Shown here: one piece after another, positions 28,111-52,275 of the stretch
How the letters are laid out: every line of letters starts with the position of its first letter
Numbering within the stretch: the stretch's first letter is position 1
NCBI RefSeq assembly: GCF_038025025.1
Contig: NW_027117350.1
Span: forward strand, 1,178,001-1,242,000
Direction of reading: 5' to 3'
Length of the DNA stretch: 64,000 nucleotides
DNA from: Phyllosticta citribraziliensis
Lineage: Eukaryota
The notes under the pieces: generated by a model
Told to the model about the DNA's origin: nothing
Databases searched by the model: none
The model's input: only the letters and a program-made list of their open reading frames with translations
Made by a program: the position numbers and the translations under genes

Positions 28111-29777
28111 ATACTAATACATGAATTACCCCAATACGTAATGTCGAAAGATCGGCGCAGCCGACCCCTAGTTGTAGGCTGAAGGCGGGAGGCCATAGTG
28201 GGGTAGGTAGCGGGCGTTTCATGCCCGCCCGTCAGGCCGTAGTGGTAGCGAGGTGGGCCGCCGGCGGTCGGAGAGCGTTTCATGCCCGCCCGGCCCCCCC
28301 ACCTACCTGCAAACGCACAGAAAATCCTTTTGTCTTTGCTTTCCCATGCCTGCCTTCACTACCCACCTCCACAATGTCTCTCTTGAATCCGGCTGGCCTG
28401 GAGATGTGCCAAAGCCAAAAGGTTGTTTTGTCGCGCAGACAACGACGCGTGTTTCGCTGCTGAACGCTCCTGTCATGGACTTGGTTGGGTGCTTAAGGGT
28501 CTGAGACGTGTCTGTGAACAAGCCGGCGCGTTCCGAACAATGATCAAACTACCTGAAAGCGTTAGCTGGTGGAGTAGTGTTGAGCCAGGTTCCTTTAGGC
28601 GGGCAATCAGCCCATCTTCTTCGCCGCCGCTCCGCTTCAAGCGAGGGGGCCGGGCGGACAGTGATGCAACATGGTCGCGAGGCACACAGCTGACGGTGGG
28701 ACTGAACCACGGATGCGATGCAACCACCACCTTCCCCTCCGTCGGCACGGCGTTGCCGCAGGCAAGCGCACGCTGAAGCGGACGACAAGCAACGCTGCAG
28801 CGCGATTCGCAGTGTGAGGCGACGCCTCGTCTTCCAGAAAGGAGGAACAACCCGATGGCAAGGTTCGCGGCGGTGGTGACTGGGAGAAGCCTCTGGGATT
28901 GCCGGTCGAGAACTTGAAGGAGGTGCAGGAGCGGCGAGTCGGGGCGCATGGATCAAAGACAAAGATGACCAAGGCACAGCGCGTTGCGGCGATTTGATGG
29001 GACTCTTGCCTGGACCAGATTGATTCGGCCCGACAGAAACCATGCTCTTTGTTCCCCACCAACCAAAGCTGACAACCTCACCAATTCACCTCCCATGGTC
29101 CCCCGGAATCCTCACTCCTCGCCCTCCCAGAATCCCACATACCTCTCACTCACCACCAATTGCACCTCGCCGAGGCTGAGAGCCGATATCGAGAGAGATG
29201 AATGGGGTGGGGGGTGGTGGGTCTGTGTAGCAGCAACTCCTCAGCATTGCGTCCTCCGAAAAAAGGCGATAGATGGGCGGGGAGCTGGGCGTCTGCGTAG
29301 CAGCTGGCCTCGGCGGTGTGGACACGGAGAGGGATGAACGGAGGACTGGGCGCATCTGTGTAGCTTGCCCACCTCGGCGTTGTTTACGAGTGGTGATTTT
29401 GGTCACCAGCGAGAGTATAGCCATGGTGTATCGCTCCAGAAGGTGCAGCTGCCTGCGGCGCCATTGGAAGTCGTAACGAACGGTGAGACGATGGAGGAGG
29501 AGGAGGAGGAGGAGGAGGACGGACGGCACAGCGATGGCGACTGGAGAGCTTAGAGACGTTGGTTGAGAAGGAATGGAACGAGTAGACCCGCGTTCTCTAT
29601 ACACGACACTGGTCAGATGGGCACCATGGGTATGCGCGCGGTCTTTGACTTGCCTTGACATGCATCCCCTTGTTTAGGCTCACGAGGTGGATGTAAAGGG
29701 CGGTAGAGCGTGGTCTAGTGCGTCCGGCTTGTACATCCATGGTGGCGGCCTTTGCGAGGATGCAGCGCGCCTTTTGC

Positions 29778-29923
29778 GAATGGCCTTCTCGCTGGCGGGA
29801 ATCATACTCGCTGGCGGGAAAGGCAACTTGCTGGCGGGAATCATACTCGCTGGCGACAATGGGCATTCTCGCTGGCGGGAACCATACTCGCTGGCGGGAA
29901 TGGCTTTCTCGCTAGCGGGAATG
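29778..29923. repeat. Palindromic minisatellite array 1 (7 x ctcgctggcgggaa)
   Basis: Core repeats every 19-22 bp. Confidence 0.9.
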
Positions 29924-32320
29924 GGCGAAGGTGGTCGCGAGGGCAGGCGCAGTCGACGGGAGGGCGGTCGGAATGGTCCATGGCGAGCGGCCAGGGTGCA
30001 GTACTTGGACGGGTCCGGGTGGACGAAGCCTTTGTGTAAAATGGCGCCCTGTCACCCATCGTGGCGTTCGGTTGCTACATAGCGTTGTGCTTTTGTCATG
30101 GCCGGTGCTTGAAGTGGCACAGCATGGTGGTGGACGGGAGGGGACAGCCACCTCAGCCACCTCAGCCACCTCAGCCACACCTGACTCGTACTGCACTGCA
30201 CTCTCACAGTGGGTGACGAAAGAAATTACGAATCCGGAGTTTTCCCAGAAAGCTCTATGAAGCTGCCCTTTAGATAAATAATTTTCTTTCTATACTCATC
30301 TTATTCCTGAGATCTTTCTGATAAAGATAGGCCCTTTTTTTGGCCTAACTTTGGCTATTGTGGTGGTAAAACTGAGCGAAAAGGGTATCAGAGCTGTCGA
30401 AGTTCTTTCGTCACCCACTGTGCTCTCGACTGCGACGCGACAGCGACGTGACCGCGACCGACACCGCGACTTCAACCCTTCGACCTACAACCAATCCATC
30501 TCTGAGCCGTCCATGTTTGCACGCCAATTCTTGTCCTTTTCTTCCACCGTCGCCTTTTTCAACCCTTCGCTGCCTCCTCGATTCGCGACAAATTTGCCGT
30601 CGTTCTCGGTCGCAGACTCGCTGCCCCCACCTCCGATTGCGCTCCGCGGCGAACGCGAGCACCAACTTCCTGGACAATGCCTCTTGAGGCCTCCGATTGA
30701 ATATCGGAGTGAGTAGCAGCAGCGTGAGTGAGCGCAGATCAGTGCGAGCATGCTGGCCCATATTCAGTAGCCTAGTAGTGGTGAATACGACGCGCCGAGG
30801 CAACGCCACTGGCACCTACATGTATGTATCTCTTTTCATCTCGGGAACCAAGACTCATCTTTCAAGGCCAAGATTCCCAATCTCGAGGTCGACACTCGGC
30901 AGCCATCTCTTCATCACCGCTCGCCTCCCTGCCTTCTCGTGGCTTCCTCTTTCGCGGACGACACAACATTTTGGAGGCTTCGAGCGACGGGAAGGTCTTG
31001 ATCTGGGCCCAGCGCGTCCCATCGCTCGCCTTGCTCCGCCAGTCCGCCATTCAACACAATGTCGCCCTCCTTGGCTCCTATTCAGTCGCAAGCAGAAGCG
31101 GCGCGTGCAAATTGTGGGACAGTTGCCGGGGCACGTACGCTGTGTGAACGGGGCGGTGGGCAAGCAGTTGACGGGGTGGGTTTTGCTGGCCCGCTCGCTC
31201 CACCCGCCGAGAGATTCGTGGTCAGAAACCAAGCTGCCTTAGGACACGACCAATGTCCTGGAGGGTCGCCAAGTAGCTGCATATACGTACATTGTCGGCT
31301 GGCTGACCCAGGTGGCGCGCCCAGTAAGAGGACTGATTGACTCCCGTCTGCGCCGCATCATTAACTGGATTGACAACGTCCAACGCAACTCCAGCCTGCC
31401 CTTTTCAACCAAGCGCCGTCCCTCCTCATCGTCGTCATTGTCGTCGCCCACCCTCCCTCGCAAGCGCTGCCACTGCCCCATGTGAGTGCCACCGCCCAGT
31501 ACGCCAACAAAGCGCCCAACAACAAGCACCTTCGAATCCGACAAGGACACGCCGCGCCCGTCGCGACCGGCCCACTCGTCCAAGAGGTCGCGCACCAACT
31601 CGTCTTCGCGCTCCTCAACTTTGGCCCGCAGTCCCGTCAAGACTCCCGCCGATCTTGCCATCTAGGCCACCATCACGCCCGTCAGCCTAGATTGAATCAT
31701 GTTAAATCTGGCTCAAGTCCTCAGTCGTACACTGGATGGGGTACTTTGTGCTTTGCTGACCGAGAATCCCAGATGGCGCGATACCGCAAGCTTCTCCTAG
31801 GAAAGGAGCTCCAGAAATCTTTACCGGGGCCGACCCATAGTCCGTTAGAGCAACAAATAGACAAGCGCGTTTGCGTCGGTGTTTGCCTTAATGTGGAGAT
31901 GCGTCGAAACAGCCAGCTCAGACTGCTTGAATTAGTGGTGTGAGTGGGCAACGCTGACAGAGAGAGAGAGCTCTAGTTGGTTCTTTTTGAATGGTGCTTG
32001 ACCACTCCGAATTCACGTCGAAATAGTGTCAGGGAGCGATGTAAGCCTTCGATTGCTTCGACGGGAATGGCGGTATCCGTTTGTATCTAGACGCTGCTGG
32101 ACTCCGGAAGACGCGCGAGTTTTCCAAGACGCTCTGGTGTGTTGAGCTCAAACAAGAGAGAGGAATAGAAGCGAATCCCGATTGGTGAATGGGACAGCAA
32201 ACCATTACTCTTTGCGCTGCGACCAAGCATTCATATATCAAGATCCCACGGTAGACCATTCTCACTCGCTACATTCCATGAAACCACCTCTTCAATTCTA
32301 GTCTGCTACCCTGAGCCCAA

Positions 32321-32927
32321 ATGCCTTTGAACACCAGTAAGTGCATCGCATCATTACCAGCGAACAGATAATGAACGCGTGCTAGATCAACACCAAGTCC
32401 ATACTGCACGGCAAGAGCAGCTGCAAGACTCGGCTCGACGCGGGCTTTCGTCGTACGCCAAAGCAGATCCAGAACTTCCATGGATACTGGCCTTCTACGC
32501 GTCAATCATCATCAGCTTTCTCCAGCTAGCATGCTTCGTCGCCACGGCCTTCTGCCTCTGCAGGGCCGTTAGAGACGACATCAAGCTGGCAGAATTCCAA
32601 GTCGCAATCGACGCGCTGGCCAAGAAGATCAAGTGCTCCGCGGACTACTTTGAATACGGCTGCGACGGACCGCGCATGCCTGCGATGGAGAACGGGTGCA
32701 TGATTTGGGAGCTGTGCATGAAGAAGGATGTAAAGATGCCACAACTCAGCAGCGCGCGCGCGATGGCCATCGTGATCAGCTCTTTTGCCGGGTCCATCTC
32801 GTTCAAGACCTTGGCCATGTGGGTAGTCGCCGGCGGCCTTAATCTTGTCCTTCTACGTTATCTCGACAGCCCTCCTTTCACGGCTCCCCGTCGACAAATG
32901 GCTGGCAGCCGCTGTTGGAAGTGCTGA
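32321..32927 (+). CDS. Brr6/Brl1-domain nuclear envelope protein (short, divergent), 2 exons
   Basis: ATG at 32321; intron 32337-32385 restores frame. TM helix, 'VRDDI', four-Cys loop C-SADYFEYG-C..MPAMENG-C-MIWEL-CM, then 'ARAMAIVISSFAGSISFKT' and a second TM helix. Confidence 0.8.
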
Positions 32928-33325
32928 ATCGAGATCCTAGAGGTCACCGCCGCTCTTCTCTTCCTTCCGCTTGCCGATTCGAAAATAATCTCGAAAGTCA
33001 ATTGCAACGCCGCAACAATGTCCACCACTGCTGCAACACTGCTGGTTCCATGGTCGAGGAGGTGGACAAGACGATGCTCTCATAGGGCGACACTCAATAT
33101 GATGCCTAAGGTCGTGGAGCTATCTATCCGAGCTGATTTTGTGCTTTCGTGGATTCGTCTTGAGAATGTCGCCACGGAAATGGACACGTGGGCCTCGATG
33201 AAGACAGATGAAGTCAAAAAAGATGGTTGATTCAAGGGGCGAAGGGAAAAGGTTCTGTATGCAAAGTCAATCTTCTTTACACTTGTTTCCAATGAATGCA
33301 ATTTCCTCACGATCGTTGGGAAGGA

Positions 33326-33455
33326 TGAGGTCCTACTGCTCTGCTCACCTTGAGGTCCTACTACTCTGCTCACCTTGAGGTCCTACTACTCTGCTCACCT
33401 TGAGGTCCTGCGCTCGCGCGCCTTGAGGTCCTGCGCTCGCGCGCCTTGAGGTCCC
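33326..33455. repeat. 23-24-bp tandem repeat ending ccttgaggtc (about 5 units, two sub-types)
   Basis: ctactctgctcaccttgaggtc x3, then ctgcgctcgcgcgccttgaggtc x2. Confidence 0.85.
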
Positions 33456-34882
33456 GCAAGCGAGCCCAGTGGGCGACGAGGGAAATATATAGAGGTCATT
33501 GTGCGCAAGTGGTGGGTGCCGCCTTCTCCTCTGGGAAGTCCCCCCGCAGCTGAGCAGGATGACGGGAAGCAGCACCCACCGGACCTGCCTGCCTGAACCC
33601 ACGTGGCAAACGATGAGAGTGCAAGAGGTGACCTTGAGCACCGCAGCGCGTATATTGGGTCAAAATGCAGGGCCCGCGCTGCGGCTCTTTGCGCAGCACC
33701 TCCGGATGCTCAAACAGTGTCCGGGCGGGGGTTGTGGCTTTGCATGATGACAGTGTGCCTCGTGAGATCAAATCTGGCAAGCTCATGTAGACCGAAAATA
33801 GGGTGGATGGGAGTGGAGTGGTGCAGCATCAGTTACCGGGCGAGAGGGTAGTGAGTTGTGAATGGGCCGGTGGGGGCGGCGCTGTCAATGGGCGCTGGTA
33901 AAGTGGCAACAAAACACCAGCACATTTCTACCCTGTGGCCGAGTCAGCCGCACTGCCTGCAGCTAACCACCTGTTTGTTGCACGTTCCGCGACTTGAGCG
34001 AGCGATGGGTGCTTCCACTCTCTATGCGACATGAAAAACAGGGATGCAACGCCGCTCCAAAGTTTGGCCACCATGGAGACGTCGATTGTCTCTCCAATTG
34101 CAGAATTATCTCAGCCTTCTCCTTTTGCAGAGGCTTGCCAACCCCGCTGGAAATGCAAAGAAAGCAGACCGTTGCAGCGTTGTATCAAAAAAGCAATGAG
34201 CATCAAGTTTTTGAAATATGGTGGCGCCAACTTCGCCGAGGTTCTGCTTGTAGCTTTCCTGGGCCGAGACGTAGTGCTCACCCCATGTGCTGATGAGAAA
34301 TTTGAGCGCTGGAAATTTCACCCTTTCCCGACGGGAACCGAAACCGATGCCAGATCGCGTGCGTCGTCGAGGGAGTGGTCTGCTGCGTGGAGGGGCGCCT
34401 TGGATGTAGGAGTCGACCGCTGGGATGTTGACCGCACGTTCCTCGGTGGAACAGGTGGCAGGCCCCATGGGTTCTCGCGGGCGTGGTCTGTGGTGCGCGG
34501 AGTGGACGGGACGAACCTGTGCTGGTTTCGGTGATGGGTAAGGCGACGCGGAGTTGCAGGCGCGTAATCATCGTGATCGTCTCAGGCAAGAGAGCCGTGC
34601 CCGATCGAAAGGCTTGAGTCTGGTGTTGGGCGGCGGTGTGTAGATGGTGACAGTGAAGGTGAGAGGAAAACCACTGCATGCGCGTATCAGCAAAAACAAC
34701 GCGACGGCGACGGTGAGAGGGCAGGGTAGCAGAAGCGTGGGAGGAATACGTCCCATAGACGTAGGGCATTCCCTGAGCAATCGTCGGAGACGGCGAGCGA
34801 ACGGTGTGATAGATGGCGAGAGCGGCGAGCAACGAGCGGCGAGGAGACAGTTTGCCGAGATGAGGAGGGTGTAGTAGGAGTA

Positions 34883-34934
34883 GGAGGAGGAGGAGGAGGA
34901 GGAGGAGGAGGAGGAGGAGGAGGAGGAGGAGGAG
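34883..34934. repeat. (GAG)n microsatellite
   Basis: Perfect trinucleotide run just upstream of array 2. Confidence 0.95.
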
Positions 34935-34969
34935 AACCTGAGCCGCTGGGCAGTCACGTGGACTATCCA

Positions 34970-35106
34970 ATTGCCGCCGGCGGGAATCATACTCGCTGGC
35001 GGGAATGGGCATACTCGCTGGCGAGAATGGATGAATGCCGCCGGCGGGAATCAAACTCGCTGGCGGGAATGGATGTCGCTAGCGGGAATGGCTTTCTCGC
35101 CAGCGG
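34970..35106. repeat. Palindromic minisatellite array 2 (about 7 cores)
   Basis: Same core and orientation as array 1; preceded by gtcacgtg at about 34954. Confidence 0.9.
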
Positions 35107-38100
35107 CTTTTGACCACCACCACCTACATCCGTCATCATCACCATGGCGCACCTTAACAACCAGCCAGCCTATCCCAATCTCCTCGGCCACACTCAAGCG
35201 CAAGCGTAACCACTCCCAAAACTCCCTTTGTCCGTATTCTTAATAACCAATTTGACGCCTACCTTGTGCAGTGGGACGGTAACTGGCTCCCCCGGCTCCT
35301 CTACCATTTCATCCGGAATCTGACCTCACTCACTCAAGCGCGTCGCCGATTCCCACCTCCTCCGTCTCCCTCAATTCGACCTCGCATGCCTTTCCACCCA
35401 AGCACGACGAGTCTGACGAGGACAACGTCTACACCACCTCGAAATCGACTGCCTCCCATCCACCACCACGGTTCCCGTCGGTCGTTCATCCAGCCTGTCT
35501 GGTTTCCCCGGTGGCTCAACGCGGCGACATGAGAAACAAACCTGGGCTTGCGGAATTCCAACGACGTTGTCGACAGAATCGTGGCAATCGTTTCCAGAGG
35601 AGGGCAGGCCGACACAAATAGCAACTGAGAAGGGAAAGGGAAAACCAACAAGCGGCAAATGTCCCGCCTGCTCCCGCCTTAGCCTTGGTGTCTCGCCCCA
35701 GCAGTGCAATCAGCGACACGGCATCAAGCAATGGAGCTACAAAAAGACGGCCCTTCACCCGATGTCAATGGATCTCCTGGACAGAGCGGCAATGCCACCA
35801 ATGGAAACGTCAACGGTGGTCAGGGCCCAAAGTCTCAGCCTTCAATGTACGACACTACTCCACCTGCTTTTCAATTCAAGTCAAAAACGCGCTTGTCGAA
35901 AAAGCACTGGCTGTACTGGGCGATTCCGTCCAGCGCGACACCGCCAGGCTCTTGGTCTGCGGCATCGGCTTTCTTTTCAGCAGGAAGCAACAGAAAGCGC
36001 CAGGCGTCTAATGGCGTGTCTCCTGTCGCGCACACCCTGAGCTATGCGCTGCTGCTATCGCCGCGCGCGAAGAAGCACCACTGACGGCTTAGCTCCAAGC
36101 ACCAGGGCCTGTGCCGCTGAACCGAACGACAGCTCGCCCTTCCCCGAAATGAGAGTGAACCGTGAGGTCAGCGTCCCATGTGGATCCATGGAGCGCGGTT
36201 TCGCTGCTGGGTGACTGTGCCACTGGAGACGTTGCAGATACTGGGGTTATATGCTTTGGGGGATAAATGGTCGGGAATCAAAGAGGGCCTGTGCTCAGAT
36301 TCAACTGGGTTGCTCGACACCGCATCGGCTGTTGTTAAGCGCCCCTGCCAGGCAATACCCGTGGAGGACGGAGGCTTTGCTGTTCTTTTTCCAGTAATTT
36401 CAAGAGCCAACCAAGGACTTTAGTGCGCCGCGGCCCTGTCAATCAAGACATTTTTGAAAACGCCGCCGACGCTTGATGCGCTCCAGGAGAATAACGTGGA
36501 CACTCAGCTTTGACGTCTTGTGTGGCGTAGGCGGCCTTCTTACTACCCACCTTCTCGCAACATGCTCACCAGCAGACCGCCCTCCCTCGCCATCTCACTT
36601 CACCGTTGCTCCTTTGCATCGTTTGAATGCGGTGCGCCTCAGCACCAGGCCTGAGACAGAACGCAACCTTGACGACTCCATTCTGTCCACGCATACGGCA
36701 ATGCCAGGAGATGGCAGGCGTTCAGTTCAACCTGCTCAAAGCCAGCATCATGGGGGATGAAGACGCGGTGGTGGCAGGACATCGGCGTCCACCATCACCA
36801 CGTACCACCCATCAGCAAGCATTCAGTGCGTAGTTGAAGAAGCACGCTGGTCACCTGCACGTGTGCAGGCGACTGGGAGCGTGTCTTCAACGAGGGAGAG
36901 AAGCAGGAACCGGAAGAGTTTCTTGTCTACGGCGTCTAGGCAGAGCCTCTAGGTCGCCGGGTAGGTGGTTAGACAGAAATTCGAAGGAAGGTTCCATGGC
37001 AACGCGCCTAGAAGTGCAGAAGGAGATGTCAGATGCGACGGTGAAGGGCCACGTGAAGTAATTTCAACGACGACAGCGACAGTAAGAACACGAACATGAA
37101 AGGTTCCGCCGAGAGAATCGACGTCATGGGCGTTGACCCAGGCGCGACCGCGAACGAGCGCGACATTGAGGCCATGGACAAGGTCATCGGTGGAGAAGCG
37201 CTTGATCGCGATCAAGGGCAAATTCTCCAACGGACCCGAGAGGTCCTCGGCGACGCTGCCAGACCCGGACGCCCCTTCCAGCATCAATAAGGACGAAACA
37301 TTTGTGAACCTAGCACCAATTGGCAGTGAGTTCTCCTGCGGCGAGACCACAGACGCCTACTGCCACACGCAGTACAACCTGCTCCTTCCTCGCTGGGCTT
37401 GTCTTTTGCTCGGCGACCGCCCCGCAGGAATACTTCAACGGCTTGTTGGTGTGCGGCACGCACGGCACTCTGTCCATGCTCATGACCGACAAGAAGTTGC
37501 TGATGAAGGCCTAAGTCAAGTTCGCGCTGGTGTTGTATGAGAGGATGACGAGCAAGATCCTGTCCAAGGTTGCGGACCCGACCACAAGGTACGTGTCGAA
37601 GGTATTCATGCGCACCGACTAGGACGAAGTCTTTGTGTCGACGATGGAGTTGCCGGCGGAGATGGAGGAGAATTCCGAAGGGAGGGACGCTCTAGTCGTG
37701 CTTGGGAGCATGGTCCTGGCGGCGCAGGTGGTGAAGTACGTAAAGATGAAGAACGGCGCGATTTCCGCCGTGGGCAAGGACGCGGTGGCGAGCCCGAGGA
37801 TGGTCGAGAAGTAGCCGACTTTTGAGTGGGTCTGCTGGCTCTGGCAGTCGTCCTGAGGATGGCATGCCGCCGTTGCGAGGAACCGATTCCCAACTGCTTG
37901 AACGCCCCGGCCATGAAACTCCCCAGCCAGTGCAGATCCCGAAGCAATGGCGGATGACGTGCCCTAGTCAGCGCCAAGCTGCCCAATGACCAGAGCTGCT
38001 TCCCACTCAGCGGCGGTCCATGTTTCTAGCCCTCTTGCAGACCTAGCAGGTACATACAGGGGAAAACCCACGCACTCAGCACAGGTGGTAGGCTTCCCAA

Positions 38101-40169
38101 GTTGACTGGTGACGCGGGGTTGGACAAGGAGAATATCGCCAACTTCCCTGAGAATAATGTACGGTTGATGGTGAAAAAGATGCTCCTGCATTGAGGACAG
38201 CACAGCTGTTCGACGCGAAGGTCGGCGTGCATTCTTGCTCGAGGCTGGGCGCGGATGACACAACGCATGGGACGGCGAACAAGGGCGCCGGATGCGCATC
38301 GCACTCCCGACATGTCTTTGGCTGAATTGACCGCTAGACGCTGCTTCAACTCGCGCGGAAAACGTAGTCTTGGAGGTGTCGATGTCGGTGTCTGGGCTGG
38401 CGGCGGAGGACTCAACTTTGAGTGGGCGCTATAATGTTGAAAAGTGGCCGTCTCCTTCTTCACAATTTGAGGCGCAAGAACTGCGTGCTTCGGGTGAGCT
38501 GGTGGGATCCGTGAATCACATTCGGCGGATATGCAGTCAGTGTTGACGTGTGGTCCGCATCCGGCGTGGACGAGTTTTGGTCCTGAGGTTGCTCCAGGTC
38601 GTAGTCTCTGCTCTTGTTGTCATTAGACTCTCCTCTCCAATTAGCGACGCCCTCGTCGACGTGATGAGCTCCACGCGCAGTACCGCAGCAATTGGCTGGG
38701 CGGCCATCAGCGCGCGCAATGGGTTGATCAGTGGCCGCCGACCGCTGCGAACAAGTGAAATTGGTGGATTCCGGGGATAGCAGGTCAAGGGCGGAGTAGA
38801 CAAAGGGCGAAGAGGATGGCCTTATTGATCCAAGTGGTGCTGTCGAAACGTCCCAGTACACGAACTCGACCTGTCAGCGTGTGAGATGGTGTCTAGCTTT
38901 GAATGAAAACAGGGCAAGGGAGGCGTACATTTCGAGCAGCTTGGAGGAACTAGAACGATCGGATGTGGGGCGAAGACGGAAACGGAGGGTGATTCAACTT
39001 GTCGACCTATACCAGTGTGGTGACCGGCCTTGAATGAAGAGAGGGCGAGGAAGGCGTGCTTCTCTGGCGACGTCTGCTGGTGCGGACGCTTGCCCGGCTG
39101 CGTTTCGTCACCGGCGGAAGTACGAGCAAATATCAAGTCCCGACCATGCCCCACTTGAGAAACTCTTCAATCCTATCACAAAGGCGGCGGCGCCCTTATC
39201 ATGACGCGCCGTCGTCGCACACAAGTCATCCGGCGCAAGAAGCGATCGCGGGCTCTGGTTTACCCTTCAACTTGGCATGCGTGGCCTCAGCGTCTTGGAC
39301 CGCGACGCCCGCGGGCGGCGTCAACGGCTGCCGACATGGCATTGAACGGGTCCGTCGCGATGGCGGTCCTTCGCCCAAGATGCCCAAGATGCCCAAGACG
39401 CCCAAGGCTAAGGTGGATTCTTGGCGAGTTCTATGATGCGCATATCGTTCAAGGCAAAGGCGCCCCAAATAAGGTAGATTACGCTTTGTCCGACCTGATA
39501 GCACCCACTGAGCTGCTCCATGGCCTTGTCGGTCTCGTTCATGGGAGGAGCGCGAGATTCTTCGGTCGCTGTCTGCCCGTCGGCCGTCATACGCTCTTGC
39601 TCCATTTCAGAGTCGCGCTTCCGTTTCCTGGGGCGCTCGATCATAACAAACGGATTGGATAGGTCGATTCCCTCGTTCAAATCCTGAATTGTTTCGTCCG
39701 GAGCTCGGTCAAAGGTCCAGTCGACGTCTCCGAGCAAGGTTTCGGCATCATCGCGTCTTGTGTCCTCCACGCTTGCTTCACTCGCGGTCCTTGTTGCTGC
39801 CGGTGCCGCTCACTGGAGTTGTGTCTTCAACTATCGGAATTGAGACGGGGCCAAGGTTGTGCTGGCGCTTTTGCAGGTGTGGAGGGGTGCGTTCTGCGGG
39901 AGAGGACGGGTCGCGTTCTGCGGGAGAGGGCGACGCGCGATGTGCGGGGGAGGGCGACGCGCGATATGCGGGAGAGGACGGCGAGCATATTGTGGACGGG
40001 GGCGAGGTTGGCAAGGGTGACTAGGAGTAGCACATGGTGTAAGCAAGCATCATTTGGGTTGAATTATATGGTTGCTCACAGTGTAGAACTGTCGCTGAGG
40101 GGGACTTGGAGCGCTTCAGGGCTGTCCATCTTGCTGTTGGGTGTCAAGTCGAGGCAAATTGCGCGCCTT

Positions 40170-40765
40170 GTCGCTGGCGGGAAAGGCAACTCGCTGGCGG
40201 GAATCATACTCGCTGGCGGGAATGGCCCTCTTAGTAATCACCTTCTTTCTTGCTGGTGGGGAGGCCATTCCCGCTAGCGAGTATGAATCCCGCTGGCGAG
40301 AGAGCTGGTCACGTGAGCGAGGAAGCCATACTCGCCGGCGAGTATGCTGGTCACGTGAGCGAGGAAGCCATACTCGCCGGCGAGTATGCCGGTCACGTGA
40401 GTGAGGAAGCCATACTCGCCGGCGAGTATGCCGGTCACGTGAGCGAGAAAGCCATACTCGCCGGCGAGTATGATTCCCGCTAGTGAGTGGCTGAGTCACC
40501 CGCTGGCGAGTATGCCGGTCACGTGAGCAAGTGGCTGAGTCACCCGCTGGCGAGTATGGTTTCCGCTGGCGAGTATGCCGGTCACGTGAGTGAGCAGCTG
40601 AGTCACCTGCTGGCGAGTATGCCATTCCCGCCGGCGAGTATGCCGGTCACGTGAGCGAGAAAGCCATACTCGCCGGCGAGTATGATTCCCGCTAGCGAGT
40701 GGCTGAGTCACCCGCTAGCGAGTATGATTCCCGCTGGCGAGATTGCCATTCCCGCTAGCGAGATT
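40170..40765. repeat. Palindromic minisatellite array 3 (3 forward cores, then an inverted block with 42-bp units)
   Basis: Unit ggtcacgtgagcgaggaagccatactcgccggcgagtatgcc; 7 CACGTG and 4 TGAGTCA sites. Confidence 0.93.
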
Positions 40766-43700
40766 CACCGGCCACTACTTAACACGTCCTGGGGAGCCCA
40801 CGAGCAACTGGGCATCTTGGACAGCACGTTGGGCCAGGTCTTGTCTATACCAGACGTCCGCATGCGCGACTCGCCTTCGTAATGCTTTCAACTCCAACTT
40901 CTTTTCCTCCTAACGACGCGCTCCTAATTGCTCCAAAATTGACTCTCCTGAGTCCACAGTACCCTGGCAAGCGATGCCACCAATCAACAGGCTACAACCA
41001 CCGAGCCCTCCACTGAGCCCTCCACCGAGCCCTCGACGCGTGCGCTGCTTCAACAACACAGCACCACGCTCAAGATGTCAAGCCTGATAGCCTACCTAAT
41101 ATAAGAAATAAATGACATCTAGGAGGATATCACAGCATTTTCTCTTCAGGATATACATTCTGGACTTCGCTAATAGCGTAGGATGACACACCAAGAATAT
41201 CGGATGCGGCAACTTGGGCACCGAATCGGTTGGCTTGTGGGGTCCTCCTCCTCCTCCTCATTGAGATCTTGATCGCTTGCAGTATACACGTGGACCGCTC
41301 AGATTCGTCGCGACTTGGGGCTTCATTCCATGGCCAGGCTCTTGGGTCTGTCTGCCTTCATTTTCGGGTCTATTTGTGTGCTTCGCCCCAGCTTCAAATT
41401 CTACAGCTTATCCTCGCCTCACTCAGGGTTTCTGGTGGCTGAAGGCTTTCCCTCTTTCTATAAGAGCTCACGGAGTGTGTCGTTGACATTCGGCGCGCCC
41501 TCATTGGTGTCAACGGGTCAGCTTGGATTACAGCGGCCAAGCGGCGCCACCAGAGTCACCGCGCGCCTGTTCTCCACAAAACCACAGCGACCACTCGTCA
41601 GCCTTTCTCCTCTGAAGTCGCTCCAGGCACCGCGACTCATTCCAGAGCGAAGCAGCGAGCGAGGCTCGCCCCCGTTCCCGCGGACATTTTCTTCATCTTG
41701 TCCCCTGGAGACGAGCCCTTACACCATCCACTACCCGGCATCGACAGGCTATAAGTGTCCAAGTAGGACTGATGCAGAGAATGGTACGTGAGGTGACCTT
41801 GGCTTTGGCCGTTTACACGTTGGTGGGCCAAGATGCGATGAGACAAGAAGGAGAAGAGCAACAGCAACGGCGGGCGTAAAGAAGATGAGAGAAGAATTTA
41901 TAAGGCGGTTGTGATTCTGTTGGATTAGCGTTGGCGACACCGGGAAGAAAATTGGTCTTCCTGCACTCCCACTCTTGTTAACCTTACCTCCATCTCAACT
42001 CTACTCACCTTCATCTCAACCACTCTACAGCTATCCCAAGCTATCAGACGAGTGCGTCGCCATCTCCAATTTCTCAGCCATTCTTGCTAATCAAGACGAC
42101 TGCATAGGATTCTGTGTTTGGAGTCCGGGCATTAAAAACTTTCCTGAACCAGCCTACGCCAACGACCTACTTGAGACGTCACTGGACATTGCCGCTGTTC
42201 AAGTACTGTGTGAAATGATCCTGCTGCCTTCGTCCGCCGCCGTGCTCCTACCTCCCATCATCTGCTATCCTTTACTCACCGCCCTCATCTTTTTAGAGTT
42301 CACTTCTCACTTCGGCCCCCCATACTCCTACTACCGCCAAAGCATGTCTATAAACAGAGGTGCTTGCAAACCCCTTATAAGGATGCAATCTTGAGACAAG
42401 GTTGTAAATCTCGCAGCTGTGGGACTGAAAGAGGTAGGAGACACATTACCAAACCAAGGGAGTTTTGCGCTAGCTACCCGCTGGGCTGTTATTCAAACTC
42501 GATGTACGCCTGCTCGAATGTATCCTTCAGCTCCTACTCCTCCAGTTGGTCCGTCCTTTCATCACCTTGTGACTGACATCTTGCTTCAGTTGCTGCAAAC
42601 TATCCTTAACCTCCTTCCACTGTTTCCACGTGCGACGCCTGGTGTCGACTCGGTCCTCTGATGCTGTCGAGCCGCGCATCCCATATATTGGCCATGGTGC
42701 GGAGCCTGTCGATGACTGCCTCGCTCGTCAAGCACCATTCCTTCCATCGGGTGGTTGGTGCTTCTCGACCGTATCAAAACCCAATATATGGTGATGGATG
42801 CGGTGACCACGATGGCCATGCCTCAGCTCGCACTCCATACGCGCAACACGTTTGTGACCGCACAGGCGAGATTCATGCGCAATGTGGTTGCCACATTCCT
42901 GGCTCTTACACTTTGGTTTTCCACATTCGTGCCGGCATGCATCTTTCTTAAGAATCAGAGCTGTGGTCGCGTCCTGAACTGGAGCTGAATCAGAGGCTCT
43001 CATCCTACGCCTTAGAGATTGACCTCTGCTATGCTACCAGGACATGAACGGCGTGAAAACTTCGAGACAGGACGAGAGAACATGGAGACGCATATGCATG
43101 GGGCCAAGTTGAGCAAATATTTGGATCTGTGGGTACAGTGCTGATTGATTGAATACATAGGTGCGTGGCATTCAGCGGGGCTGGCCGTAAATCCATGACA
43201 CCACCCCCAACTCCTCCCCCACTTGCTGACGACCCATAATCCTGTGGAGAAGTGGCGGCCAGACGCGTCGGGGACTCTGAAATGGATTGTCCTGAGTGAA
43301 AGGGCTGCTGTGGGTTTCCTCGTACTGTACTTGAGGCGTGTTTGCTGTGGATGGACGTGATCGTCTCGACGGCGGCGGCAGCTCATCAACCTCGTACTCC
43401 TGAGCCCGAGCATGTTTTCTCCAAGCGTGCTTCGACGTCGGATGCTGTTATTGCTCTCGCGGGACGGGTTTGAGGCCAGATTTGACTGATGGGTACCTCG
43501 CGCCGCCTTCGTCGGCTCTGCGTTCGCTGTCGAAGTAGCCCGCCCGGGCAGCACACACGGACGGCGGATTCCAGTCTGTTCAACCTTCGAGACGCCAGAA
43601 AGTGGGAGGAGCAATCTGCGGACAGGAGACGGTGTGCTCGTCAAGTTTTGCGCGTATGTGAGCTGGAGTCGAGGCGACGATGGGCGCTCGATGAGCTCTG

Positions 43701-46700
43701 TTTGCTGGGCCGGCGCGTTGGAGTCGCGTTTCGGTAAGTTTGGTTTGCGACGAGGCCGTCGTCGACGAGAGAAGGTTTTCGTAGTGCATTTTTTGGGAGG
43801 AGAAGTCGGCGCGTAGTACAGCGACGGTTTCTTCCAGCTTTTGCGCGTAGGTGAGCTAGAGTTGAGGCGATTATGGGCGCTTGATAAGGTCTGTTTGGGC
43901 GGCCTGAGCGTTGGTGTCGCGCTCGGGCGAGGTGGGCTAGGCGGGCGAAGTAAAGAATCTGAACATTGCGGCCGTCGACCCCATGGAACGGGCGAGGCGA
44001 AGAATCTGAACATTGCGGCCGTCGACTCCATCGAACGCACCCAGCGGGTGAGGGTGCTTGTTCTCGTTGCTGCACCATGTCGTGGGTTGTAGGAGTAGCC
44101 GTTGTGCTTTGGCGTACCGGTAGAATCAGACAAGTGATGGTGAGGTGGATGCGATGAAAGAAGAGCGTCAGCGGATGTTGTGATTGATGATGGAGGAAGA
44201 AGAGGAGAGGAGGAAGAAGAAGAAGAAGAGGAAGAGGAAGAGGAGGAAAGCCCAGGTCGCCAGCTCGTCACTCCCTCCGTCTCCCCCGCCTCGTCGCCTT
44301 CGACCCGCTCGACCCATCCATCTTGCCTTTCTCAGCCAATACCGACAAACATCTGCCTCTCGGTGGCTGCCGACAACGAGAAGAGATGCTCCTCAACCAC
44401 CGCCGAGCCTCTCAACCTTCTCATCTGGCGCTTACCTCTCCTCTCCTCTGTTCGTCTCGTCCCTGCTCCTGCTGCTGCTGGATACTAATGTTGGCCAGAA
44501 GAACGACGTGAACAACTTCCAACCGTCTTCTAGATCGTGCCGGCCTTGGCTGCGGCGGCTTCATCTTGCCCGCTCGTCCCCGCCGGAAACAACTGTCGAG
44601 GATCGACTACCCACCAAGGTTCCATGATCCAAACGAGGAAAACGCGTTTGTCGACAACATCGCCCCAGCGTGGCACGTCTTTGGTGCTTCGGACGCCGCG
44701 GCCTTGTGGGCCAACCTGCGGCTCCTGACCGACGCAAAATCCGCCCAATGTCGCTACCGCATCCAACCGCATCGTTGCCAGGAGACTCTGGACGCGGCGG
44801 CGACCGAGGAGCTGGTCTAGCTAGAGACGCAAATCATTCGACTCCCTGCCATGCAGTGGAGTAGACGAGGGGAGTCCCATCTACGGCAGGGTGGTCCTGA
44901 TCAGGTCAGACAACGTCACCGTCAGTCCATCAGGCCCCGCCGGCGGGCGCATTCCTGGACGCTTGACGACTCGAACTTCATCCCTCTCACTTTCAATTCA
45001 CGACCCACCACCCTCAAGTCTCGCCAAGTCCTCCAATGTCTCCGGTCCCGCCGTACTCTCTCTGCTCCGCGCCACCCAGCGCCTGCTCAAACGCCTCAAC
45101 GCTGCTATCGGCTCCACCGCACAATTCCCGACCACTGGGGACTTGGGGCGCTGAATGCGCAAGACGTAAAGCACCGCCGCAAAAGCCGCCGACGGTCTAT
45201 TGGAATCGCCGGACAGGTCAGCTCTAGGTACACCTCCCCTTCAAGTTCTCTTTGCATGTCCGGCCCAACTTCATTCTCCGGCTGCCCAGGTATGCTTCCC
45301 GCCGAAGCTCCCCTCTCCAGGTGTGGTGCTCATAGGGGCACGCCATCGAGGTCATGGCACGATGCCAACGGCGCTGTTCGCAAAGCGCGGCCGCGTGGTA
45401 TCGCCGCTGCTGCTACTGCCATCGCCAGCGTGGCGCTCTCGCACACGTCGCCCGGGGCTCGCGAGGTCGTCAACGGCCGCCGCGCCGCCATCGAACGCTC
45501 CTCCACCTCCACACCAACAACCACCTCCACCCACGCTGCCGACACAAGGGCATAGCGAGCCCATCATCAAATGCCGTCGTCAGCGCCATCAGGCTCCCAG
45601 TCACCCCAAACACGGCTACAAATAGCAGGCCTTCTCGGCCAACAGCGGTCTCGATCTGGAAGCCCTTATGATTTGGACTACCACCTGACGCCATGCGCGC
45701 GCTACGAGCTCGCGCATGACCATCATGCGTCTACTGCTTATGCTCATACTCACAAGGCTATGATATCCCGATGGAAACTGCATGCCTGCCTTCCCTCCAA
45801 GTCTGTTGCGCGTGCTACACAAGATGACGACAAGGAAGCGAGGGCGCGTTTCCCCGGCAGAGGAGGGGACAGTGCTGTGGCGGCAGATGGTAGCACCCGT
45901 CAGACACTGAACGAGGCCGAGAGAGGCGTGCGGCGGTTGACGAGAAGCGTGGGAGATGTTAAGAGAGCACCAGGACCATCGGCTTGGCATGTTGGTGCGA
46001 AAAAAATGGTTGACAGAGGTGGATGACACAGTTCTGGGGGCTGACAAGTGCACATGGCTTGTTATTCTGACCAAATCCTGCTCATGGGACGATCCGGCCG
46101 TTGTTCCCAGCAGCCACCGTGTTTGAGAGATGAGGCGGCGGCGCTGTCAGGCGCGTTGCCGACGAAGTCGGGACGACCCTGGCGCACTGTTGATGCTGAT
46201 ATTGCTATTGCTAGAGTCCTCCAACCTAACATCAATGTCATTATCACTTTCAGAGCCTTGCTTCGCTCTATTTCCAAAATAATCAGCCCAGGGGTCTACT
46301 GGCTTCCGTTTGGCATGGGAGCTGGATTGTTGTCAGGTTTGCTGGACTTCATCTTGATCGCTGCGGTGGTATCCTCAGGCTCCCTCTCGACGTCTTGCTT
46401 GACAAGCGGTTCTAGCTCTTTGATGGCATCGCCATTATTATCTGCAGGGCCAGTGAAGACCTCCTTGGGGCACCGGAAACGCGGTCGAGTACTGCGGTGA
46501 TGTCCGTCAGTGCCGCCGTAATTCATTATATTTTCTCTATGTAGTGGTGGTGATGCTTTGATTTGAGCCACGGGCTGGGCTTTTTCATTTGATATTCATC
46601 CATAGCCCTTGTTCCTCCTCCTCCACCCCCCATCTCCCACTGATTGCCCGACTCTTCTGTGCACAACAGTCACCAAGTGCCGTTGAGCCCGCGCTGCCGT

Positions 46701-49396
46701 CTGGAGGCTCGTGGCTAAGACTCGATCGAGCTTCCTGGCAAAGCGCGTGAGGTGCTCGTGCGCGCAGCTGCTTCGCGTCCCCCCCTCCCCCCTTTTATCA
46801 TACTCGGCAACCAGCTGCGGGTGAATTTCCTCTTCCCGCTCCATAGTCGCGGCGTTTATGGCCGGAGCGAGGCCAGGCGCGGGAGGCATCATCTTCCGTA
46901 ACTCTCTTCCCGGTCATACGAAGACAAGCGCGGATTGAGCGAGCGTGGCGGGCCTGGCAGCAAAAGGTCAGTCAGTCAGTCTGCTAAGTAGCAGGCAGGG
47001 CTCGACTTGCATGACGCCACCGATGGGGCCGTCATACTCCTCGCCATCAACACCAGCAGCAGCAGCAGTGGTCGAGCTGCCATGGCGACCGTCAGTGCGG
47101 ACGCTGCCTCTGACGACTCTTCGTCGGCTGGCGTGCCGGGCCCGCCGGCCATGGCCGTACCGCTCTCATCATGCCTGATACTCGCGCGTCGGCCAAAAAA
47201 AATTGGAAAGGGGCCGTCGCGATACATAAATGCGGCGCGCGCAAACTCGAAGTCGCACCAAAGCTCGTCGTCCTCGGGCGGCCACACGCGGCCTCAGCAA
47301 CTAACTCTCACGAACGACGCACCGGCTCGGAATTCGACGGCCGCCTGGCCGGCCCACCATGGCGATGGATTTGCTGTGAAAGTCCACGTTGGCGTTGGTC
47401 TGCACGCGCTCATTGATTGATCCAGCTGCGCAGGTGTTCGCACTGTACTGGTCGACTGGATTTTGGGCAACAAGTCCTTTGTCAGTGCGGTGCGCCTTGT
47501 ATGGCCGTACCAGCAACAGCGGAATCTGCAATTAGGAGCTTCATGATGAGACAGTCTCTTGTACTCTCGTGAAGTTGTCCTTTTGTGGAAGTCGACCTTT
47601 GGATTCGGCCTCGTCTCAGCCTCAGCCTTGACAACCTTGCGCGCGCGCACATGCCGAGGAAGATGAAGACGCTAAAGTACTTTTTTTTAGGCGTCGTCAT
47701 CACGCTCAAGGGCTCGCTTGAGCAGCTGTAGAATCAGGTCGAGAAAAGTGGCGTCCGGCTGCTTGATTTCCGGCCTCTACTTGGCTGTGGCCGAGTTTCA
47801 CGACCAACTAGGGGCTGAGCGCGCACGTCCTGGTCGACAGTAGGCCGAGGGATGGTGGGCCACGGCTTTTGAATTGCTTGCTGCAGTCTTTGGTCCAATT
47901 ATGATGCGCTGCGTTTTGGATTCGGGCAGGCATCAAGATGCCAGGCAATTTCTTCGAGAGGCGAGGAGACGTGATGATGATCGTCAGCCACGCGCTTCGA
48001 CTTCTAGAGACGGCAAACGATTTTAGCAGCATTCGTGTGGGCCCATGGCCGGAAAGACAAGCTTCGTAGTGAGCCGGTGGGCGGGCCATCATCATCCCTA
48101 TAGGGATTCTAGTGCGCCGCGGCTGCTATTTCTTCGTCGGTGGTGGTGATTAGATGACAGTCCCAGCGGTTGAAGTCTCCCGTTTGCCTAGAGCGGAATG
48201 CGGAAGAGGGATCAATGTCCACAGACTCGATCCCGTCTTGACCAACCACAGCACTAAAACTTTTCAAGGCCAATCTCGACACCAGCGTCGCTGGCCACGA
48301 CCAACTCCAGCTTGTAGACACGTCAGAGGCTCTTTAAAAAGAGCACAAGATGGCCGGGCATGTCGTCTATGGGTCTGGAAGGCAGGACACGAGGTACTGG
48401 AATGATGAATTGGGACATGGTTTCAAGATGGATCTTTGGTTATTTGCGGGCGGAACCAGCAGCAGCATTGGAGAATGGGACGGGTTGCTGGTACTCGAGG
48501 GGAAATCCAGAATTTGACGTGCATATGCCATTGACGGGGAGGACCAAATAGAACATTTGTTTCAGGCGTTTCGAGCTGGATGTGTGCGAGACATGATTGG
48601 GACACGAAGACTGACCACCAGGACAGTCATGGCCAATTCAAAGACTCGGACTCGGACATGGCCTCTCTTATTCCCCGGCTGCACCATCATCATCACCACC
48701 AGTTGTGCGCCCAATCCACCGCTTTTAGATCCATCGGAGGCCTGACCAAGACACGTTGTCCCACCACTGTCCATTCAATCGATGTGGTGCTGGCGGCCGA
48801 TACCGAGTCGTGGGGTTTCAGGCTGTATGGATTGAGAAAAGGCGGCAGGAGGAGGAGGAGGAGGAGGAGGCGGCGTTGATACTGTGACAATCAGTCGCAA
48901 ATGGCGACAGCACAAAGTCCATAACTTCAGGCGCTGCGGTCCTTGAGCCACGCTGCAAGCCGTCGACACAACGCGGCCAATCTGGCGCAGCTGGAAAACC
49001 AACGTACTTTGGCGACACCTGATGATACTGAGACTTCCAGGTTGTACGCCCTCTTGTTGTTGAACTTGATTGTGCAGTCCGTCTCGTTTGTTCCCCAGTG
49101 TCATCTTTCTCTCTGAAGCTGCGTGACAGTGCGACAGGGGTGCGATGGTTGCCGGAGCGAGACTGTCCCCGTGAAGTAGCCATCGACACAATCTCGGGTG
49201 ACAGGGCATCGTGACGCGGCCGCAGCTACTGGAGGAAGATGAAAAAGCAATGATAGAGATGGTAGTGATGGCGACGAGGGATGGCCTTGGTCGTGCTGGT
49301 GTTTGTGTTGAAGTGTCCAGTGAAGGAAGTGGAGGAGAGCTTGTCGGAGAAACGTTTTGCTAGCACGTCCAACATGCATGCATGTCTCGACGACGA

Positions 49397-50327
49397 CTAG
49401 GAGGTTTGTGAAAGGCGGTCCGAGGCGGGTATGCTCAAATTCCAGTCTGTCTTCTGCCCCGTGCGGTCCATTTCCGCCGACGCCTGCTGCAGCACCGCCT
49501 CGAGCACTTGGCAGAGGCGCCTGCTCTGAACCCCCGCGTCTCTGGTGAGAGCCGTCTCTGTCTGTCGGAGCTGGAAGCTCTGTGCGTCGAGTGCGGCCGC
49601 GAGCGTATTTGCTGTGTCCGCGTCCACTTGTCTTGTTGGCCGCGACAGCGCGAGCGTGTAGCTCCAGCTCGCCGCCACATGGCGTCCTCGGAGGCGCTGG
49701 TGACTTTGGGGAGCTTCACCGAAAGCGGCGACAGCTGCGGGGCAGTGTTGTGCTTTGAGCCAATCTTCTTTGGTTGGATGTGCTCCGCGTGTTTTGGCAG
49801 GGCGCCATTGCTGAGCTCTGGGGGGCCGGAGATCCACTCGTGAATGAGGAAGAGAAGAGGCACAATGCGACACAGGCAAGCCTGCCTATCAAGCACTGCT
49901 GGAGCCGAAGCCGCGTGAGGTAGACCGCATGGGCTGCGAGCTGGTGTGGAAATTGTGAGAGCCGAACGAGGCCTGGCGCGCCTGCGGCGCTGGGTACCGC
50001 GCGTACAGATGCTTCTTGGCCGGGGACAGGTGAGGTCTGCAATGCTCGTCTGCGAGGCACCCGTGCGGGCGCCAAGCGGACCTGAAGTGCTTCGGACCTC
50101 CTGTGGTGTGCCGGGTGTAGGCGTAGCAGTGTGGGCGTGCGACGGTTGTGGCAGTACTCCAGAGTCGCCTTTTGGCATTCTTGGTCGGGCTGAGAAGTTG
50201 GGGCAGTACTTTCGATGACGCGAGCGTTGTCGGGCTCGATGAGGCGCTGCAGTTCGGCGAGATGGTGCGCGAGTTCTGGCGGCGGCAGCGAAGACGTATG
50301 GTGGTGGTGGTGGTGGTGGGCCGTCAT
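49397..50327 (-). CDS. Hypothetical (possibly disrupted) gene divergently transcribed from the CenH3-like gene
   Basis: ATG at 50327 (MTAHHHHHHH..), continuing into the helical ORF that ends at 49397. Exon structure uncertain; no family recognised. Confidence 0.35.
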
Positions 50328-50635
50328 GGTCGTTTCGGTCGAGGATGATGGCCTGGGGCGACGACCGTGTGAGCGTCGAGCATGACGCGCAAGCAAGCGA
50401 GAAGATGAAGTGGCAAGGAAATGCACAGGAAGTGTGACACGGAGTGAGGGAGTGAGGGTAGACGCAGATGGATGGACGGACGAAGAAAACGACAAACCTA
50501 CCGACATGTACAGGCTGGCACCTGCGGCTTGTTTGCTCCATGCCTGAGGCCGAGAGCGACGACGACGATTGTCTACATATTTAGTTTCTTGGACCTTCAT
50601 CAACCTCTTTCGATCCTCCATCCACTCAATCAAAA

Positions 50636-51148
50636 ATGGCACGATCCAAGCTCGGGAAGCCGTCGAAACGAAGCCTCTCACAGCGTATGTCCGACAACAC
50701 CACAGCCAACACACTGCACATTGCTGACACACAGTTCGCACGCGCAGCTGGCGACCCCACCCCTCGGCCGCCGGTCAGGCGTCGCAAGTCCAGTGCCGTT
50801 GCCATCAGGGAAATCAAAGCATGCCAAAAGTCGACCGACCTCTGCCTGCGCAAGCTGCCCTTCTCCCGCCTGGTCAGTATGCCACAGACACAGCCACACA
50901 CACATACACACAACTGACCAACACGGTACCAGGTGCGGGAGATTGCTCAAGCAATGACGGATGGCGCCAGCGGGGTGACGCGGTGGCAGGTCAAGGCGTT
51001 GGAAGCGCTGCAGGAGGCGGCCGAGGCGTACCTGGTCGGTGTGATGGAGGACACCAATTACTGCGCCCAGCATGCCCGTCGCCAGACTATCAAGCAGGTT
51101 GACATGCAGTTGGCGAGACGGATCCGCGGTCGGTTTGAGGCCCATTAA
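50636..51148 (+). CDS. Divergent centromeric histone H3 variant (CenH3/CENP-A-like), 3 exons, 129 aa
   Basis: Exons 50636-50684, 50748-50872 and 50933-51148 give [129 protein letters not shown]. Confidence 0.85.
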
Positions 51149-51393
51149 CAGTAATTCCGTCCGCGGCAGCGGCACAACATACATTGGTTGATTGGATAGA
51201 GACAAACCGACAGGGGAGAGGGAAGCTCTACAGGAAGGAGAGGAGGCTTGCGGCCGTCGAAGATGGGGATAAGCACTGAATTCATGCAGATTGACGTGCG
51301 CTGTGTGTGCTTTAGCTTCTTGTGTGAATCTGCCCAATGTCATTGAATGTAGTAGTATCAGCAGACTAACCCAGACATATGACTCGCCACTAC

Positions 51394-52275
51394 CTAAGCA
51401 AGCTCGTCCTCTCCGTCCTCCTCATCATCATCATCATTATCATCATCATCGTTCAGCTTCTTCACCAGCCGGTTGTACTGGGTAATGGCCATTGCCTCAG
51501 AAACTCCCAGCTCTTCCGCAATGCCTTTGAACTTGAATCCTTTGCGGCGTTGGCCCAGGAGGTGGTCCTTTTCGGCCTGGGTCCATCTTCGGTATGATTG
51601 ACTGTCGCCACCGGTGGCCGAGCGACCCTTCTGGACGTCGTAGAATCGTTGCCTCGCTGCTTGCAGCGTGCGCCCGGGCATGTGCGCTGGAACAATCTCT
51701 GCCCACGGCACCTTCTTGTCCCGCAGCTCTTTCATCCTCGCGTCCTCCTCGGGGGTCCAATTGCCAAATTTCAGGGCGCTGGCGTCGATGGGTTCGATGC
51801 CTTCCTTGGTTGTTGTCGTGATGGCGGGCCGAATCGGCACATTTGTTGTTGTCCTTGATTCGGAAGAGTGAGTATGAAGCATGTCAACAACAATCGACCC
51901 TTGGTGAACTTACTCGTGCTTGTCCTCTTCTTCTGCCTCGACATGACTGTCCATCCTCTCCTCGTCCTCCTCGTCGTCCTCTTCGCCCTCCTCTGCCTCC
52001 AGCGTGTCGTCCATCCTTTCCTGCGGGGTTTCATCTTGACTGCAAGCGTCATCCCAAGCCAGAGCGGCGAACGGCCCCTCCTCCGGGTAATCTTCCATGC
52101 CTGCAAGGTACCCGTGGTCTTGCACCAGATCGCCAGTCGCCAAATCCACCACGTCGTCTGCGCCGTCACCGTCGTCTCGCGCATACTTTGCGAGGAAAGC
52201 GTCGGTGAAAATAGCATCTGCCCATGCTGGCGGCAGCAGCGGTGATGGCGCTGCGGCCTGGTCGTGGGGAGGCAT
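51394..52275 (-). CDS. Scm3/HJURP-domain CenH3 chaperone fused to two Myb/SANT repeats, 2 exons, about 273 aa
   Basis: Exon 52275-51914 has 'FLAKYARDDGDGADDVVDLATGDLVQDHGYL' (Scm3-like KY..D.IDL.TGEIV.DNGHL) and an acidic tract. Intron 51854-51913 keeps frame. Exon 2 has 'WTPEEDARMKELRDKKVPWAEIVPAHMPGRTLQAARQRF' and 'WTQAEKDHLL..KFKGIAEELGVS'. Confidence 0.78.

Follow-up and report, generated by a model that had tools for sequence, protein, structure and literature searches.

A short, core-only Brr6/Brl1 paralogue near CenH3-like and Scm3 genes in Phyllosticta citribraziliensis

The short Brr6 gene and its surroundings

In the window (the whole 64,000-nucleotide stretch that was analysed of the DNA of P. 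citribraziliensis, a citrus-associated fungus), a short Brr6 paralogue lies on the plus strand. Its exon 1 (32321..32336) consists of the ATG, four further codons and one nucleotide, a 49-nt GT..AG intron (32337..32385) interrupts this new short leader, and exon 2 (32386..32927) carries the whole Brr6_like_C_C core and the stop codon. The intact two-exon gene proposed in the preliminary description was confirmed, since the 558 nt of coding sequence specify 185 amino acids without internal stops, and the product was identical to an NCBI protein named Phyllosticta citribraziliensis (P0002), which also matches exon 1. The splice joint (32336 to 32386) was present in sequencing run X1, whose contig was colinear with 32386-33254 without a single differing letter. 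X1 was judged to be RNA from GT..AG joints only, none of the runs being recorded as RNA, and these joints make its RNA nature very likely. Four runs were compared over 32200-52199, with contig depths that are unusable for ranking expression; one of them, metagenome X3, had a contig across 32274-32734 with four differences from the window. The RNA contig bearing the short Brr6 also contained a minus-strand intron (CT..AC, 33254-33374), which points to a convergent transcript that overlaps or abuts the 3' end of the gene. A 25-nt tandem repeat (33326-33454) lies just 3' of the gene, and X1 lacked 23 letters at 33398.

The gene is placed between repeat array 1 (29769..29924, 19-21-nt units) and repeat array 2 (34954..35106), at 2.4 kb and 2.0 kb respectively, as had been described. 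Nothing ties the gene to these arrays. Both arrays belong to a set of four related arrays of partly palindromic 19-21-nt units, the other two being at 40165-40765 and 56400-56727. The starts of arrays 1 to 3 are about 5.2 kb apart, two divergent spliced transcripts flank array 3, and the 13 occurrences of TCACGTG in the window are all within or beside arrays 2-4.

To the right of 25 kb, with short ORFs scanned to 48.5 kb, the only recognisable genes found were the short Brr6, a divergent CenH3-like gene and an Scm3 gene with a Myb-like part. The CenH3-like gene (50636..51148, plus strand; P0244) encodes 129 amino acids and has two spliced introns, and its product has an H3 fold that resembles CenH3 proteins in its long loop 1 and its RW motif. 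The Scm3-Myb gene (51394..52275, minus strand) has one spliced intron and an inferred start codon. These two genes are arranged tail to tail, 18-20 kb from the short Brr6, and all of their introns were spliced in X1. Pfam matches were obtained for only two of the 52 long ORFs right of 25 kb (Scm3 and Myb), and none of the 140 short ORFs scanned at 27-48.5 kb (of 195) scored above a curated Pfam cut-off.

The interval between the short Brr6 and the CenH3/Scm3 pair was occupied by spliced transcripts without recognisable ORFs and by stop-broken stretches that match genes expressed elsewhere, with loose ends at 35743-35846 and 43274-43475. Three stretches (35743-35987, 43274-43475 and 45812-45991) were about 90% like other contigs of the same RNA run, and the one at 43.3 kb, which matches a contig of deep coverage, is part of a stop-broken frame. 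Neither decayed frame, at 37.2-37.9 kb or at 43.2-44.0 kb, could be assigned to a Pfam family, and an ESM Atlas search with one 91-aa piece of these frames gave no match. Two coding-like frames (36950-37940 and 39411-39809) had no Pfam match either, the second having a basic NLS-like stretch. Dinucleotide composition in 4-kb bins gave no sign of heavy RIP. Positions 1-25000 contain an NRPS, two P450s, an O-methyltransferase, an aminotransferase, an oxidoreductase, a GNAT, an MBOAT and an ABC transporter, that is, a secondary-metabolite cluster, which we take to be of the epipolythiodioxopiperazine type and which abuts the duplicate-rich region.

The Brr6 core and its relatives in Phyllosticta

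Membership of the Brr6/Brl1 family was upheld by the domain HMM, the protein scoring 68 bits (E 9e-19) for Brr6_like_C_C (PF10104), where the cut-off is 25. The expected layout of a transmembrane segment, a four-Cys luminal loop, a predicted amphipathic helix and a second transmembrane segment was likewise recovered by hydropathy, a structural model and alignment, all segments being on the plus strand. TM1 (approximately residues 38-66; 32481..32567), recognised from hydropathy, the model and conservation, was strong, and S45 and S49 occupied the positions of its family-invariant Q and N. The luminal helical hairpin (32634..32717), delimited by alignment A1 and the predicted structure, carries Cys89, Cys98, Cys110 and Cys116, which were invariant across the 93 aligned sequences of A1 and whose disulfide pairing is predicted only. 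Residues M103-P104-A105-M106 (32676..32687) form the ΦPAΦ (PAL-type) hydrophobic loop, a motif taken from 10.1101/2025.07.21.665908; the exact M-P-A-M form was absent from the forms listed for 238 other proteins, and both flanks are hydrophobic.

The putative amphipathic helix (approximately residues 127-144; 32748..32801), placed from the model and conservation, retained the hydrophobic face M132/I136/F139/I143, positions matched by spacing only, and had a moment of 0.33, against a family median of 0.47 and a 5th percentile of 0.40 (n = 216 helices). TM2 (approximately residues 147-165; 32808..32864), seen by hydropathy and in the model, was present but weak, with a rough Hessa sum of 3.5 as compared with -1.9 to 1.2 in the six canonical proteins scored. 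The predicted structure (pLDDT 81, pTM 0.52) had helices at residues 36-96, 104-118, 127-142 and 145-166, in the order expected for the family. Searches of the PDB gave no match, either by fold with the model (none at E ≤ 0.001 among the five listed) or by sequence, and a solved structure of the family was not found in this way. A complex prediction of a canonical core with the window protein, run without alignments, scored 0.00 and was counted neither way.

Little is left outside the core: 19 residues precede it and 36 follow it, compared with 236-287 and 92-131, respectively, in 11 named canonical proteins. Taking as conserved those positions with at least 75% conservation among 238 other proteins, the window protein kept 25 of 48, while the other members kept at least 31 (median 44). 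Among the 23 lost were the Q and N of TM1, N96 and the linker after Cys116; W113, F139 and K146 were kept, alongside the four Cys and the ΦPAΦ loop. This retention was not random: of the 15 columns conserved at 97% or more, 12 were kept, whereas among the 84 variable columns the number was 20 (binomial p 7e-6). The retention may be a historical trace rather than a sign of current selection.

A canonical Brr6 of the same species (P0157, 508 aa) was recovered by a search with the P. capitalensis Brr6, to which it was 87% identical across the searched region, in a cluster of nine members. Of the proteins compared by BLAST, P0157 was the best match of the window protein (34% over 157 aa). The claim that the gene is a paralogue was thus sustained, as P0157 exists in the species and the canonical synteny is missing at the window copy. 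Judged from sequence, the gene is a member of PF10104, yet not the canonical orthologue. With the single long Brr6/Brl1 of filamentous ascomycetes, of which P0157 is an example, it has in common the Pfam domain, the four Cys, the loop and the helix face; compared with P0157 it is shorter by about 225 residues at the N-terminus and 95 at the C-terminus.

We found a second core-only Phyllosticta Brr6 (P0018, 186 aa, 67.8 bits to PF10104), whose accession series is interleaved with that of P. citribraziliensis and whose counterpart is P0341. The two short proteins both keep the four Cys and are 28% identical. P0018, however, is without the ΦPAΦ loop and has a normal helix moment (0.43), whereas the window copy keeps the loop and has a low moment. 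Only 8 of the 15 near-invariant columns were retained in P0018 (p 0.17), so the signal seen in the window copy does not appear there.

Close relatives of the window protein were not found elsewhere. When 1.84 billion representatives were searched with phmmer, 533 matches had E ≤ 0.001; none but the protein itself reached E 1e-30, and the next-best was 35% identical. A word-based homologue search, which considered 109 candidates of 98-314 aa, recovered nothing beyond the query itself, and 12 pattern matches in viral contigs included no relatives. A widespread short Brr6 subfamily, suggested by ESM Atlas clusters of 129-268 aa, was rejected because most of the short phmmer matches read as canonical genes that had been truncated, either at their start or at the conserved intron.

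Origin of the short copy

At 66 or more of 80 fungal loci, a splice donor was located directly after the amphipathic helix, without read-on into TM2; 13 of the same loci read on by script (nine by eye) and one was cut. The same post-helix intron was found in read-through gene models of two Phyllosticta clusters (P0153/P0154 and P0345). The window gene has no intron at this phase-0 family site, which corresponds to 32813/32814. In the canonical filamentous-fungal genes (L001-L080) the post-helix intron truncates many automatic gene calls.

The canonical neighbours, an Atl1-like (alkyltransferase-like) gene, Bud13 or a kinase, were met at 15 of the 27 metagenome loci that were 15 kb or longer and were all missing from the window; the first two were named from Pfam, and the third is presumably a kinase. 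Compared with the long filamentous Brr6, the window copy thus stands without the conserved intron, this neighbourhood and 23 of the 48 conserved residues. No relic of the P0157 N-terminus was detected in the window at E<1. The missing intron together with the truncation fits a retro-like copy, and the window gene is probably a truncated, intron-less copy of this kind that gained its leader exon later. Plain intron loss is a possible alternative to retroposition, and such loss does occur without it, as indicated by the loci that read on (nine by eye and at most 13 by script, of 80).

Trees that took in 34-68 of 240 cores were built. A quick tree (68 rows) united the window protein with P0018 and both Phyllosticta canonical proteins (SH-aLRT 100). 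We did not trust this grouping, since long branches met there and the careful trees, without P0018 (34 rows) or with it (35 rows), left the window protein unplaced with unsettled bootstraps. Its end branch was 3.8-4.6 changes per column long. A Phyllosticta clade for the window protein remained acceptable under the AU test (p 0.37). The window protein shared five of 35 Phyllosticta-rare states (2.3 expected) and P0018 shared 11, the derivation of the latter from the Phyllosticta canonical gene being clearer. The two short proteins have four rare states in common, a number matched or exceeded by four of 238 other proteins, and among the shared residues are C64 and Y96, which are otherwise absent.

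Horizontal transfer from another fungus, instead of duplication within Phyllosticta, would concern the origin of the gene only. The failure of the careful trees to unite the window protein with the Phyllosticta canonical genes, and its few Phyllosticta-rare states beside those of P0018, would agree with such a transfer. We consider it quite doubtful: the best match is the protein of its own species (P0157), the Phyllosticta clade survived the AU test, no donor-like relative appeared among the 533 matches, and C64 and Y96 are common to P0018, even if four other proteins share as many rare states.

Possible roles and possible link to CenH3 and Scm3

According to 10.1101/2025.07.21.665908, yeast Brl1 and Brr6 rings meet across the lumen through their ΦPAΦ loops, a long N-tail, present in Brl1 only, carries export signals, and overexpressed Brl1 without this tail rescues the loss of both genes. 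Two further reports describe binding of Nic96 by the Brl1 N-terminus (PMC13043894) and mutants of the amphipathic helix that are dominant-negative when the hydrophobic face is changed and tolerated when the polar face is (PMC9402233). The Brr6 of S. pombe, of the same family and the sole gene there, drives spindle-pole insertion and acts in spindle-pole-body insertion and extrusion (PMC3206342); the mitotic reading of the window gene derives from it. Across 55 holomycotan species, most fungi had one BRL1/BRR6 gene, with a notable duplication in Saccharomycotina (10.1101/2025.07.21.665908; its supplementary fungal tree may list others).

Judged from its published description, the Brr6 of S. cerevisiae resembles the window copy in having the same core order, in being without the Brl1-type N-terminal domain and in coexisting with a long paralogue (10.1101/2025.07.21.665908 and PMC13043894). 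The yeast duplication, however, is ancient in Saccharomycotina and both of its genes are essential, whereas the window copy is restricted to its lineage, out of synteny and one of two short copies, and it is far more degenerate than the rest of the family.

The reading that we favour, at about an even chance and by analogy with yeast, is that the short Brr6 is an untargeted, core-only fusogen subunit that partners the long canonical protein. It would be an old, fast-evolving, lineage-restricted BRR6/BRL1 duplicate, a truncated intron-less copy that landed in a duplicate-collecting region and was reduced to the membrane-fusion core with selection persisting. As deduced from yeast, both TMs would sit in the nuclear-envelope/ER membrane, with the disulfide-held hairpin projecting into the lumen, and the ΦPAΦ tip would pair head-to-head with the long canonical protein, or with itself, in the opposite membrane, which would help the inner and outer membranes to fuse at pore assembly or spindle-pole insertion. 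Because the N-tail of about 230 residues, which in yeast Brl1 provides the export signal and the Nic96 contact, is missing, the protein would act as an untargeted partner, like budding-yeast Brr6. Such a long-plus-short pair would have been reached independently of the yeasts, converging on the Brr6/Brl1 pair. In favour of this reading are the canonical copy in the same species, the short flanks of the core, the missing post-helix intron and canonical neighbours, the non-random residue retention, the spliced transcript and the model with the expected helix order; the rescue by overexpressed, tail-less yeast Brl1 and the tolerated polar-face changes of the helix may also speak for it. Against it are the low number of conserved positions kept (25 of 48), with the changes in TM1, at N96 and in the linker after Cys116, the low helix moment, the weak TM2, the possibly historical nature of the retention, the unsettled placement in the two careful trees and the occurrence of intron loss without retroposition.

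A duplicate under relaxed constraint or in decay, with no current function and passively transcribed in a region that accumulates copies, is a rival that we regard as unlikely, though with an appreciable chance. The long end branch (3.8-4.6 changes per column), the neighbouring transcribed stretches without recognisable ORFs, some of them stop-broken copies, and the other short paralogue P0018, already without its ΦPAΦ loop, would all be in line with decay. However, an open frame of 185 codons with a clean intron has been maintained despite 66% amino-acid divergence, and the key residues were kept non-randomly (p 7e-6).

Similarly unlikely is a linked segregation module. In it the short Brr6 would act together with the CenH3-like and Scm3-Myb copies, for example in a specialised nuclear division or in a chromosomal island that promotes itself, and the envelope would be remodelled where the spindle pole or a variant centromere docks. 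The segregation theme of the preliminary description stood in so far as a Brr6 paralogue does lie near divergent CenH3 and Scm3 genes; the shared function stays putative, proximity being what connects them. For the module, all three genes recognised to the right of 25 kb relate to centromere or envelope and were spliced in X1, both families have extra divergent copies here (P0018 and P0339), and S. pombe Brr6 drives spindle-pole insertion (PMC3206342). On the other side, 18 kb and five to seven gene models, with broken duplicates between, separate Brr6 from the pair, and Brr6-family proteins function chiefly in pore biogenesis.

Sequencing runs and accession numbers were also informative about the block. 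All four runs gave cover on 32200-52199, including one from another organism (X4, most contigs <95% alike), which had depth in 30 of 30 bins, both Brr6 and CenH3-like genes included; this would fit a module. The accessory nature of the region, as proposed earlier, stays putative, the longest contig with the protein being 2.47 Mb and the run of the second organism having depth in every bin. P0002 and P0244 were each found on at least three contigs, with two accessions in one numbering series; their accessions were spaced by 6 in each of three series, a second of which belongs to the same species, and the first series contained another pair, 8 apart and in reverse order. The canonical P0157 differs from this pattern, with at least two contigs and one accession in that series, and P0018 had at least one contig. 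From the doubled accessions we infer co-duplication of the block, held twice with identical proteins in one assembly, which may be a real duplication, in agreement with a module, or assembly redundancy, which would count against it.

Other observations speak against a module. In the CenH3-like gene an intron is present at a site through which other CenH3 gene models read; as this ancestral intron was kept and Brr6 lost one, the two copies probably arrived separately, by different routes. A further CenH3-like protein of this species (P0339), with derived residues common to P0244, may be the normal CenH3 or another copy, and it is on a contig of 599 kb, as opposed to 253 kb for P0341, the other short Brr6. 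No captain tyrosine recombinase or transposase was matched in Pfam among 88 long ORFs and 140 of the 195 short ORFs at 27-48.5 kb; a mobile element could reach beyond the window. H3 or Scm3 matches were found at none of 80 canonical Brr6 loci, where an 18-kb link would be missed because the flanks were 10 kb at most (only 15 loci reached 20 kb). We infer that the nearness to the CenH3/Scm3 copies reflects the region and is not proof of a shared job.

The boldest form of this idea, which we hold to be rather improbable, is a Phyllosticta island of independently copied core genes with its own centromeric histone, loader and envelope fusogen. Such an island would duplicate as a block and bias or specialise the inheritance of DNA or nuclei, and on behalf of the variant centromere the short Brr6 would open or remodel the envelope at the spindle pole.

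A dominant-negative tuner, which would dock on the canonical protein through the intact loop, fuse poorly and damp pore insertion, is very unlikely. The intact loop combined with a low-moment helix and a degenerate linker would suit this role, and in yeast, mutants of the helix that retain the loop intact are dominant-negative; however, those mutants carry an aspartate on the hydrophobic face, and residues 132, 136, 139 and 143 (by spacing) are hydrophobic here. That the window gene is the sole BRR6 orthologue, in conserved synteny, has practically no chance and was ruled out, since the domain match is all that speaks for it, P0157 exists in the same species and the canonical neighbours are absent from the window.

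In the literature that could be searched (subscription papers being mostly outside it), we found no description of additional Brr6 copies in filamentous fungi or of linkage of an extra Brr6 to CenH3/Scm3, and the main text of two Phyllosticta genome papers (PMC6965161 and PMC6612112) had no occurrence of Brr6, Brl1, centromer or histone. If the link to CenH3/Scm3, at present one of proximity only, were functional, the region would represent an undescribed kind of fungal inheritance island. The presence of one long copy and two short ones in a filamentous fungus constitutes an independent natural experiment on the splitting of pore-fusion work, in which the loop, kept in one short copy and lost in the other, mirrors the mutants made in the laboratory.
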